DNA of 64,000 nt from Phycisphaeraceae bacterium. GTDB lineage: Bacteria > Planctomycetota > Phycisphaerae > Phycisphaerales > SM1A02. The position numbers were made by a program, and so were the translations under genes. The notes beneath the pieces are model-generated. The model was not told the origin of the DNA and did not search any database. It saw only the letters and a program-made list of their open reading frames with translations. The stretch spans positions 1,553,205 to 1,617,204 of the forward strand of contig CP054178.1 of NCBI GenBank assembly GCA_015709595.1, read 5' to 3'. Positions 27,994 through 35,581 of this stretch are shown here, one piece after another (positions within the stretch are counted from its first letter, which is position 1; each line of letters starts with the position of its first letter).

Positions 27994-29124
27994 ATGCACG
28001 GCGATTCCACGTTTCACGAAGCCCTCTCCGACCTGTTCGACGGGGGCTGGATCGATGAGGTGCTGTACGAAGTCAGGAGCGGCAAGGAGGCGACGGTCTT
28101 CTGCTGCCGCGCCGGCGCTCGATCACTGGAGCGCCTTTCGGAGTTCTCGACGCCCCATTCCACCGCCCCTCGGCTCTCAGCCGACATCCTCCTCGCCGCC
28201 AAGGTCTACCGCGACCTTGAATCCCGCCGCTTCAAGAACGACGCCATCTACCAGACCGGCCGCGTCCACCTCGCCCGCGAGGGCCGCGTCAAACGCGCGG
28301 CGGACAACAAGTCGCACTTCGGCCGCCAGGTGCAGTACGGCATGTGGATCGAGCACGAGTGGGAAACGCTGAGGGTGCTGCACGAGGCCGGGCTGCCCGT
28401 GCCCGCCCCCATCGCGCGGGGCGAGCGGGCCATCCTGATGACCTACTTGGGCGACGCCGACGGCCCCGCGCCGGCCCTGGCCGAGATCGACCTGCCCCGC
28501 GACCAGGCGTGGGACACCTTTGACCACCTGCTCGACGCCGTGTTCGCCATGCTCTCGCTCGACCGCGTGCACGGCGACCTGTCGGCGTACAACATCCTGT
28601 GGTGGCCCACCGGAGGAGCGGAGAGTGCGAAGGGCGCGGGGGGTGCCGGGGAGCGCGGACGTGCCGTCCGCGCGGGTGAGGTGGACCCAAGGAGCGAGCG
28701 CGGACGTTCCGTTCGCGCGGGTGAGGTGGACCCAAGGAGCGAGCGCGGACGTTCCGTCCGCGCGGGTGAGGTAGGCGCCGGGAAAACCAAGGCGGGAATC
28801 TCTGAACAACTCCCTCTCCCACCGGGAGAGGGTCGGGGTGAGGGCGTTCCTCGGCCGGAAACGACGCTCATGAGGCATTCTATCGATGCACGGCAGGATT
28901 GTTCGGAGGTCCCATTGGCGCACCGGGCGACGATCATCGACTTCCCGCAGGCGATCGACCCGCGGCTCAACCCCGCCGCCCGCACGCTGCTGGCCCGGGA
29001 TGTCGCCAACCTCTGCCGCTGGGCGGCGAAGCAGGGCGTACCCGCCGCCGCCTGCGACGGCGCCGCGGCGGAGCGGATCACACGGACGATGTGGGGGCGG
29101 TTTCGGGTGGGGGAGGTGGGGTAG
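27994..29124 (+). CDS. RIO1-type atypical protein kinase with a repeat-derived insertion in the catalytic core
   Basis: EVRSGKEATVFCC, LAAKVYR, catalytic HGDLSAYNILWW and metal-binding IIDFPQAID. About 95 aa of repeat-encoded sequence lies between the last two motifs. Confidence 0.8.
   Translation: MHGDSTFHEALSDLFDGGWIDEVLYEVRSGKEATVFCCRAGARSLERLSEFSTPHSTAPRLSADILLAAKVYRDLESRRFKNDAIYQTGRVHLAREGRVKRAADNKSHFGRQVQYGMWIEHEWETLRVLHEAGLPVPAPIARGERAILMTYLGDADGPAPALAEIDLPRDQAWDTFDHLLDAVFAMLSLDRVHGDLSAYNILWWPTGGAESAKGAGGAGERGRAVRAGEVDPRSERGRSVRAGEVDPRSERGRSVRAGEVGAGKTKAGISEQLPLPPGEGRGEGVPRPETTLMRHSIDARQDCSEVPLAHRATIIDFPQAIDPRLNPAARTLLARDVANLCRWAAKQGVPAAACDGAAAERITRTMWGRFRVGEVG
28651..28772. repeat. 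45-bp tandem repeat x2.7, each unit holding a 9-bp-stem hairpin (GCGCGGACG-TTC-CGTCCGCGC)
   Basis: Units at 28651-28695, 28696-28740 and 28741-28772. In frame they give ERGRAVRAGEVDPRS x3 inside the RIO kinase ORF. Confidence 0.9.
28810..28846. repeat. REP-B element (CTCCCTCTCCCACCGGGAGAGGGTCGGGGTGAGGGCG) inside the RIO kinase ORF
   Basis: 9-bp perfect stem CCCTCTCCC / GGGAGAGGG with loop ACC. Translates as LPLPPGEGRGEGV. Confidence 0.8.
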
Positions 29125-34219: not shown

Positions 34220-35581
34220 ATGTCCGTTCCCACCGACCTCGACTACGCGCTGGATGATCACGGGACGGAGCGCCCCATCGCCGAGATCGCGCGGTCGTTC
34301 ACGCTCGATCCGCGTATTCCTGCGCTCGTGCCGGGGTTCGATGCGCCGTTCTTCCAGGCGGGGCTGGCGGGATATTCCGACGGGGCGATGCGCCTGATCG
34401 CCCGGCGGCATGGCTGCCCCTTCTGCGTCACCGAGGCGCTGCTCGATCAGACGCTCATCAACGGCGGCAAGGGGCGCACGCGCGAGGATCCCGACCTGCT
34501 GGCCGAGGAGTGCGGCACCGGCGATCCGGACGAGAACATTCCCGGCTCGGCGCGCGGGCTGGTGGATCATCCCATCGCCGGGCAGATCATGGGCACGTTT
34601 CCCGATCAGATGGCCCGCGGGTCGCTGCTGCTGGTGGGCATGGGGCACGACGTGATTGATGTGAACCTGGCCTGCCCGGTGAAGAAGATTCGCCGCCGGT
34701 CACGAGGTGGGCACTTCCTCATGGACCCGGTCGGCGCGATAGAAGTTCTGCGAGCCGTGCGCCAGGCGGTTCCGTCGCATGTGCCCTGCACCGTGAAACT
34801 CCGCCGCGCGTGGGACGACACGCCGGAGATGGCGCGCCACTTCGAGCGCATCTTCGAGGCGGCGTACGAGCTGGGCTATGCGTGGGCGACCGTGCATTGC
34901 CGCACTGTGGTGCAGAAGTATCATGGGCCGGGTCGCTGGTCATTTCTGCGCGACCTGACGCGACGCTACCCCGATCGGCTGATCTTCGGCTCGGGCGACG
35001 TGTGGCGCGTGGAGGACATCTTCGCCATGCTGGACCTGACGGGTGTGCATGCCGTGAGCGTGGCCCGCGGGTGCATCGGCAATCCGTGGATCTTCCGCCA
35101 GGCGCGGGAGTTGATGTCCGGAATGAGGATGGCAGGCGGGACGCCCGCCCCACTGACGCCCACCCCGCCGATGTCCGCCACACCGACGCGCGAAGTGAGC
35201 CGCGACCGTCAGGGGGCGTATGACCCACACGAAGTGAGCCGCGACCGTCAGGGAGCGGATGACCCACACGAAATGAACCGTGACCATGAGGGGGCGTATG
35301 ACCCACACGAAGTGAGCCGCGACCGTCAGGGAGCGGATGACCCGTTCACTCCGACGCCGCCCACCATAGACGAGCAGCGCCAGGCCCTGCTGGAGCACTT
35401 TGACCTCGCCGTCGCCTTGCACGGCGAGCGATCCGCCTCGCAGCAGATGCGGAAGTTCGGCATCAAGTTCAGCCGCCATCACCCGCGGGGCGAACAGGTG
35501 AAGGCGGAGTTCATCCGCTGCAAGACCGTCGCCGACTGGCGCGCCGTGGTGGAGCGGTGGTACGCAAATCTTTCGGAGTGA
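34220..35581 (+). CDS. tRNA-dihydrouridine synthase (Dus family) with a 39-bp tandem repeat insertion
   Basis: LAGYSDGAMRLIARRHG, AGQIMG, IDVNLACPVKKI and TVKLR are Dus TIM-barrel motifs. The insertion lies between the barrel and the helical domain. Confidence 0.85.
   Translation: MSVPTDLDYALDDHGTERPIAEIARSFTLDPRIPALVPGFDAPFFQAGLAGYSDGAMRLIARRHGCPFCVTEALLDQTLINGGKGRTREDPDLLAEECGTGDPDENIPGSARGLVDHPIAGQIMGTFPDQMARGSLLLVGMGHDVIDVNLACPVKKIRRRSRGGHFLMDPVGAIEVLRAVRQAVPSHVPCTVKLRRAWDDTPEMARHFERIFEAAYELGYAWATVHCRTVVQKYHGPGRWSFLRDLTRRYPDRLIFGSGDVWRVEDIFAMLDLTGVHAVSVARGCIGNPWIFRQARELMSGMRMAGGTPAPLTPTPPMSATPTREVSRDRQGAYDPHEVSRDRQGADDPHEMNRDHEGAYDPHEVSRDRQGADDPFTPTPPTIDEQRQALLEHFDLAVALHGERSASQQMRKFGIKFSRHHPRGEQVKAEFIRCKTVADWRAVVERWYANLSE
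35192..35345. repeat. 39-bp tandem repeat x4 built on REP-A in reverse orientation (GAAGTGAGCCGCGACCGTCAGGGRGCGKATGACCCACAC)
   Basis: Units start at 35192, 35231, 35270 and 35309. They translate as EVSRDRQGAYDPH / EVSRDRQGADDPH / EMNRDHEGAYDPH / EVSRDRQGADDP. Confidence 0.9.

Follow-up and report, generated by a model that had tools for sequence, protein, structure and literature searches.

An in-frame insert made of a tandem repeat and a small inverted-repeat element between the catalytic and metal-binding loops of a planctomycete RIO1-type kinase

A gene for a RIO1-type atypical kinase/ATPase lies in a 64,000-nucleotide stretch of DNA (the window; positions 1,553,205 to 1,617,204 of contig CP054178.1, assembly GCA_015709595.1) from a Phycisphaeraceae bacterium of the Phycisphaerales (Planctomycetota), whose genome is one contig of 3.84 Mb with 67% G+C. 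The open reading frame (ORF) of this gene is interrupted, between the sequences for the catalytic and metal-binding loops, by a composite in-frame insert to which an earlier note, made from the sequence alone, had drawn attention. The 5' part of the insert (28606-28793) contains a tandem repeat, and its 3' part (28794-28913) is a mobile-element-like sequence that resembles a MITE (a miniature transposable element with inverted repeats) and encloses a repetitive extragenic palindromic (REP)-type hairpin, REP-B. The coordinates of these features, several of which are supported by Tandem Repeats Finder (TRF), Pfam or Foldseek, are collected in Table 1.

Table 1. The RIO gene and its insert in window coordinates, followed by other genes of the same genome that hold REP-B in frame (coordinates on G000:C1)
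Feature	Position	Strand	Basis or content
RIO1-type atypical kinase/ATPase gene	27994..29124	+	376 residues; ORF, translation, Pfam, Foldseek
Nucleotide-binding loop SGKEATVF, residues 29-36	28078..28101	+	G30, K31, E32 and A33 invariant in the 65-sequence alignment
AAKVYR strand with ATP-anchoring Lys70	28195..28212	+	A68 and K70 invariant (65 sequences)
Catalytic loop HGDLSAYN, residues 193-200	28570..28593	+	H193, D195, L196, S197 and N200 invariant; A. fulgidus Rio1 has HADLSEYN here
Metal-binding loop IIDFPQA, residues 314-320	28933..28953	+	I315, D316, P318 and Q319 invariant; corresponds to FIDMGQA of A. fulgidus Rio1
Lineage-specific in-frame insert, 104 residues	28606..28917	+	Tip of the hairpin joining the catalytic and metal-binding loops
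Unique G/A/E-rich 5' segment PTGGAESAKGAGGAG	28606..28650	+	Single copy in the genome; homologous to the L109 allele, strongly diverged
45-bp (15-codon) tandem repeat, 2.7 copies	28651..28772	+	TRF; each unit contains a hairpin with a 9-bp stem and encodes ERGRxVRAGEVDPRS
120-bp MITE-like element, exactly 40 codons	28794..28913	+	Terminal inverted repeats GGGAATCTCTGAACAA and TTGTTCGGAGGTCCC; encodes GISEQLPLPPGEGRGEGVPRPETTLMRHSIDARQDCSEV
REP-B core: hairpin CCCTCTCCC-ACC-GGGAGAGGG, then TCGGGGTGAGGG	28810..28846	+	Dispersed copies, coverage profile
Six Pfam-confirmed genes with in-frame REP-B			GpsA, TrpB-like PALP enzyme, RarA/MgsA, aldehyde dehydrogenase, MqnC/CofH-type radical SAM enzyme, NDH-2
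Two further genes with in-frame REP-B, outside the confirmed six			MFS-like membrane protein, glycosyltransferase-like protein
The eight REP-B genes, as listed on G000:C1	558760-560118, 861442-862794, 394058-395722, 569013-570944, 1531487-1533229, 1177637-1179142, 2805131-2806729, 1232305-1233870		

The ORF, which most likely starts at the ATG at 27994 (a MHGDSTF start is common to the gene calls of relatives), contains all of the expected RIO motifs, GKEATVF, AAKVYR, HGDLSAYNILWW and IIDFPQAID. These comprise the catalytic set of the family (a GxGKEA loop, the Lys strand, HxDLSxxN and IDxxQ), they align to Rio1, and K70, H193, D195, N200, D316 and Q319 do not vary across the 65-sequence alignment. 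The Pfam RIO1 profile (PF01163) matches at 4e-26 (92.2 bits; cut-off 22), the insert dividing the match into two stretches. A. fulgidus Rio1 is likewise matched in two parts, with query residues 115-203 covering chain residues 108-199 and query residues 313-351 covering chain residues 204-241; therefore, about 105 residues take the place of a four-residue turn of Rio1. The Pfam match, the motifs and this split structural match bear out the assignment to RIO1-type kinases made in the earlier note.

The best NCBIfam model for the protein is that of the PA4780-family RIO1-like protein kinases (NF041645; 1.6e-42), which is matched in three stretches with 145.7 bits against an equivalog cut-off of 350; as judged by sequence, the protein is a relative of the PA4780 family and not a member of it. 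The note had regarded a RIO kinase in a bacterium as unusual, a view that has to be given up because relatives occur across several bacterial phyla: NCBIfam holds the bacterial PA4780 model, and a scan of one representative genome per species of the GTDB taxonomy yielded 174 stretches that encode a relative, the best 80 of which include Phycisphaerales/Planctomycetota, Chloroflexota, delta-proteobacteria/Myxococcales, Actinomycetota and Patescibacteria. The gene is present in a single copy and is the sole RIO gene of the genome. A second RIO gene that might compensate for it was considered and rejected, as the remaining PF01163 matches in the genome are Hanks-type kinases with the motifs HADMKPSN or HCDLKPGN.

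The size of the insert is evident when the spacing between the Asn of HxDLSxxN and the [ILVM]D in the metal-binding loop is compared across the 120 of 126 collected proteins in which both motifs were found. This spacing is 114 residues in the window protein and exactly 10 in 111 of the 120 homologues, the others having 39 (a near-identical allele) or, in a few more cases, 13, 14 or 25. The two motifs thus normally lie close together and are separated here by a large insertion, as the note had proposed; its estimates of about 95 residues and of an end at 28860 are superseded by 104 residues and an end at 28917. Two of the comparisons that it had recommended bear on the placement. Alignment to RIO structures places the insert between the catalytic and metal-binding loops, with the motifs invariant in 65 sequences, and in five other genomes from this family the orthologous proteins have NIL(L/F/W)xxxR(P/A)xIIDF and no extra residues. 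The insert is also absent from the best 80 of the 174 loci in the species-representative scan. Smaller inserts do occur at the same hairpin site in independent lineages, adding 15 residues in P0088, 3-4 in P0038 and P0057, and about 13 to 19 in L017 and L018, which supports the proposal that this turn is permissive.

A model of the protein was obtained with AlphaFold2 from the 65-sequence alignment. It has a predicted template modelling score (pTM) of 0.74, and 208 of its residues have a predicted local distance difference test value (pLDDT) of at least 90. When the model was compared with known structures by Foldseek, the first 38 places were all taken by RIO1, RIO2 or RIO3 structures, with RIOK3, RIOK1 and A. 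fulgidus Rio1 the best among them, and the matches to Rio1 and RIOK1 had a probability of 1.00 and TM-scores, normalised to the target, of 0.70-0.75. Together, the confident core and the Foldseek matches fit the RIO fold, which is compact, kinase-like and devoid of an activation loop. In the model, strands 201-204 and 311-314 flank residues 216-307, whose pLDDT is below 50, so the insert is predicted to be a disordered loop at the tip of a two-strand hairpin, with the fold retained. This prediction, another of the checks that had been suggested, qualifies the view that the insertion falls in the catalytic core: it does so in sequence, but in the model it leaves the core at the hairpin turn as a loop. 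A second, smaller extension is found between the nucleotide-binding and Lys strands (window 28114-28185, residues ~41-64), where the loop exceeds that of other family orthologues by ~18 residues, is shared with the close relatives P0003 and P0005-P0007, and has a lower pLDDT (mean of 66 over a 10-residue block).

The two parts of the insert differ in their relation to the rest of the genome. The tandem-repeat part is rich in G, R and E, and TRF scores its 45-bp array at 230 with 96% matches. Perfect 9+9 hairpins are present at 28653-28673 and 28743-28763, as well as at 28812-28832 within the element; hairpin patterns number 5 against 0.03 expected from shuffled sequence, and 2 against 0.01. 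The predicted RNA fold of the tandem part is no stronger than that of shuffled sequence (z = -1.2). The earlier note took the 45-bp unit to be REP-derived. No further copy was found in the genome by either nhmmer or regular expression, and none was found in 100 genomes of the same family or in JGI metagenome contigs. A REP origin was therefore ruled out, because the unit lacks dispersed copies in its own genome and in those of the family; it is instead a local duplication. Nothing else in the genome resembles the unit except a 24-bp array of three copies, GGAGCGCGGACAACCTGTACCGGG, near 787.1 kb (G000:C1 ~787090-787165, minus strand), which shares only GGAGCGCGGAC with it.

REP-B, on the other hand, is a dispersed repeat. 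Its 36-bp core has the consensus CCCTCTCCC-nnn-GGGAGAGGG followed by yyGGGGTGAGGG, and nhmmer detects it ~40 times in the genome when E <= 1 is required and 58 times with E <= 10 (a fuzzy regular expression for the core under-counted them, at 13). It has the properties of a REP, namely a GC-rich palindrome in tens of copies with the 9-bp stem kept and a GGGGTGAGGG tail. The expected partner of such repeats, a REP-associated tyrosine transposase (RAYT), is not linked to it: the genome's only match to the Y1_Tnp domain lies inside valS and is flanked by REP-A instead. The hairpin in the RIO gene is therefore a dispersed palindromic repeat, as had been claimed, but not a bare REP, since it sits within the 120-bp element. 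This element aligns over its whole length with four clear longer copies (G000 ~210.9 kb, 348.6 kb, 2469.5 kb and 3074.7 kb), and so it does with two that are weaker (~1161.6 kb and 2763.3 kb). Its ends pair in a terminal stem of ~15 bp, and as RNA or single-stranded DNA the whole element folds end to end with a minimum free energy of -55.7 kcal/mol (z = -3.2).

With terminal inverted repeats, small size, no transposase ORF and several dispersed copies with common ends, the element resembles a MITE. The ends of its copies carry no consistent target-site duplication, and a search of the genome for an autonomous partner, as matching end pairs 40-4000 bp apart, returned only short copies. Among 100 genomes of the family, the non-REP half of the element is essentially limited to the window's genome, and a metagenome contig scan gave no match to its internal part. 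Of the element's frames on the strand of the RIO gene, the sole open one is the frame in use.

Three alleles of differing length coexist in public data, and the long and short ones were aligned globally with affine gap penalties, and also by eye. The short allele (P0003 and P0123; ~45 contigs; locus L109) encodes 301 residues with an insert of 29, PTGREVDADAAEVGERGHSVRAGAWGKDRAM, and 14 of 804 core nucleotides differ between it and the window. A single hairpin unit is present in this allele, the element is missing, and the sequences that flank the element in the window are contiguous in it, with the junction ...GGGCG|ATG.... A third lineage (L120 and L121) has the element at the same junction as the window. 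Contigs of both L120 and L121 end within the repeat, and the comparison covers the part 3' of the break, where 9 of 129 positions in the insert and 12 of 192 in the C-terminal part differ between L120 and the window; over the same 192 C-terminal nucleotides, L109 differs from the window at 4. A more distant relative from a sister species, P0005 (L115; ~85% nucleotide identity), has a plain 10-residue catalytic hairpin. In that gene, two REP-B units (PLPPGEGRSEG...HERGQGEG; L115:880-960) are found in a different loop, the one before the AAKVYR strand, and the RIO gene has therefore been struck by this repeat on more than one occasion.

These alleles also bear on the possibility that the insert is an artefact of assembly, produced by repeat collapse or by a chimera. 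Short-read contigs of a related lineage do break inside the REP, and the Logan protein P0004 looks chimeric after HGDLSAYNIL. The window, in contrast, comes from a single-contig genome, a 370-residue variant with one substitution exists, and L120 and L121 show an identical junction between element and gene. Since the exact 376-residue protein recurs on six contigs of independent assemblies, one of them a 96-kb contig from an ENA metagenome, an artefact is extremely improbable. P0004 itself (a contig of 1330 bp) was not used, as it is probably chimeric; it is 99% identical to the short allele through HGDLSAYNIL and then continues into another RIO C-terminus, YWEGTITLIDFPQVTDARSNP..., which may reflect either chimeric assembly or a recombinant.

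Comparison of the alleles points to strong purifying selection on the core of the kinase. Based on Nei-Gojobori counts and a binomial p value, the ratio of non-synonymous to synonymous substitution rates (dN/dS) between the window and L109 cores (801 positions) is 0.054, with 12 synonymous and 2 non-synonymous changes (p = 3e-6). Between the window and L120, 63 C-terminal codons contain 11 synonymous changes and 1 non-synonymous change (dN/dS 0.029, p = 5e-6). Because both of these lineages carry the element at the same site, their divergence is most likely later than its insertion, and these counts suggest that the kinase most likely stayed under selection while it carried the insert. In the part encoded by the element itself, there are 5 synonymous and 3 non-synonymous codon changes between the window and L120, slightly below the neutral expectation for replacements.

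If the insert had instead inactivated the kinase, the gene would be a young pseudogene whose frame is open by chance. The insert does part the halves of the active site in sequence, long open frames are common at high G+C, and the gene is patchy, being present in 8 of 41 related genomes, which implies that it is dispensable for many relatives. Against this, dN/dS in the core is 0.03-0.05, also between two element-bearing lineages; the catalytic residues are all kept; the insertion steps, of 45, 45 and 120 bp, are all multiples of three and stop-free; and the AlphaFold2 model retains the fold. A pseudogene is thus very unlikely, and sequence and model together indicate that the kinase is most likely still functional.

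The RIO gene is also not the only coding sequence that has taken up the repeat. Nine of the ~40 REP-B copies lie in frame within ORFs that have coding-type G+C content at third codon positions on both sides, and in six scanned ORFs of this kind Pfam matches flank the repeat on both sides (Table 1). In at least eight other genes the REP-B units lie in frame, and in those listed they encode PLPxGEG or PSPxGRG peptides, and most of the intragenic copies are the short 36-bp core, not the full element. Therefore, the insert in the RIO gene can be seen as one instance of a behaviour that runs through the genome.

We do not take the insert for a designed domain. We consider it probable that it is tolerated DNA, selfish or prone to slippage, which occupies a permissive hairpin tip, was filtered for reading frame and absence of stop codons, and is translated as a disordered loop. 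It could have been built in three steps, the order of which we infer. A G/R/E-rich stretch with one GC-rich hairpin unit would have arisen at the hairpin turn; the 45-bp unit would then have been duplicated in frame until 2.7 copies were reached, with slippage of replication at the hairpins as the most likely route; and the MITE-like element with its REP-B hairpin would have entered this earlier insert in the sole open frame of that strand. Each step would have added a multiple of three bases and no stop codon, and the 104 extra residues would form a disordered loop that projects from the surface of the C-lobe, with no harm to the active site.

Several points weigh against this account. The history of the locus is not clean, as L109 is closer to the window yet lacks the element and L120 is farther yet has it; because C-terminal similarity conflicts with element sharing in this way, loss of the element in L109 or recombination is required. 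Only 63 codons enter the test of selection after the insertion, since the contigs of L120 and L121 are broken within the repeat. At 67% G+C an open frame counts for little; the opposite strand has an ORF of 322 residues, and the element is open in three of its six frames. The strands of this hairpin line the ATP pocket in protein-kinase-like folds, and a loop of 104 residues could still disturb catalysis or partner binding in the folded protein that the model predicts. Finally, the full-length product is a prediction from sequence and model.

The same observations can be used to argue that the insert has been co-opted, such that a charged, disordered loop of variable length serves as a regulatory or autophosphorylation segment or as a docking site, tuned by how many copies of the 45-bp unit are present. 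Autophosphorylation of RIO kinases takes place on flexible loops, the frame has been preserved through several insert events, alleles of three lengths coexist, and the 5 synonymous against 3 non-synonymous changes in the element part of the window and L120 would fit some constraint, although these counts are too small to carry weight. Co-option is nevertheless unlikely. The insert, at 109 residues against 34 in L109 as counted in this comparison, conserves few residues and looks unconstrained next to a core that differs by 1.7% of nucleotides, a 10-residue hairpin suffices in 111 of 120 homologues, and no gene-specific role is needed because REP-B also occurs in many enzymes unrelated to one another.

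Among known systems, the closest parallel to tolerated repeat DNA of this kind is provided by the Rickettsia palindromic elements (RPEs), which insert in frame into protein-coding genes (Ogata et al. 2000; for a review, see section 4.2 of PMC10969869), and with which mechanism and outcome are shared. In both cases, a short palindromic MITE-like repeat of ~100-150 bp is found in frame in unrelated housekeeping genes, the added peptide lies at fold-compatible sites, and many genes of one genome are affected. The cases differ in that the present host is a free-living member of the Phycisphaerales with 67% G+C, whereas the RPE host is an AT-rich obligate intracellular bacterium. In addition, the repeat families are unrelated in sequence, most copies here are the short 36-bp core, and the element of the RIO gene lies within an older tandem-repeat insert. 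In-frame MITEs have also been described elsewhere, such as QMITE1 of Coxiella burnetii (PMC5896051) and the MITEs of Anabaena or ERIC and BOX elements (PMC10969869). Like these, the element described here is non-autonomous, has terminal inverted repeats and makes translational fusions within ORFs, but it has no sequence relation to them. Unlike the known in-frame cases, the RIO site falls inside the catalytic segment of a kinase. The protein has the same fold as A. fulgidus Rio1 (PDB 1ZP9, 1ZTH) and human RIOK1 (4OTP), with the motifs in the same order. It differs from both in sharing only 14-19% identity with them, and from Rio1 in having the 104-residue loop for a 4-residue turn and an extended loop before the Lys strand.

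Selfish DNA tolerated within a coding gene is thus a known phenomenon, and it is the example in this RIO kinase that is new. It amounts to a natural experiment on the kinase-like fold, and suggests that the hairpin between the catalytic and metal-binding loops may carry a loop of more than 100 residues under continued purifying selection. It also extends a phenomenon best known in Rickettsia to many housekeeping genes of a free-living planctomycete. On the practical side, the insert splits profile matches, with a risk of mis-annotation, and it breaks short-read assemblies; its variation in length could serve as a strain marker. One could go further and picture a Rickettsia-like, genome-wide colonisation of essential enzymes by repeats in a free-living high-G+C bacterium (the RIO kinase, GpsA, TrpB, RarA and NDH-2, with a Y1 domain in the sole ValRS), in which the RIO loop is by now a functional regulatory or docking segment that changes length rapidly, as in the three allele lengths; we regard this extended scenario as unlikely.

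Several other observations were made at this locus and elsewhere in the genome. The region 3' of the RIO gene is a variable spot. Synteny among the three close lineages ends downstream of this gene (from window 29125, L109:1561 and L120:369 on; in L109 the break lies ~450 bp beyond the RIO stop), where a 66-residue ORF and then a MATE gene are found in the window, small ORFs and a DUF305 gene in L109, and an Abi_C gene in L120. A 39-bp (13-codon) tandem array of 3.9 copies was detected by TRF at window 35191-35343. The sole valS gene of the genome (G000:C1:3835381-3839415, plus strand) is one open frame of 1345 codons, and at residues ~520-650 it holds, in frame, the Y1_Tnp/IS200-like (RAYT-like) transposase domain mentioned above, which is bordered by the REP-A-type peptides SRDREGA... 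and DRSLTVAAH.

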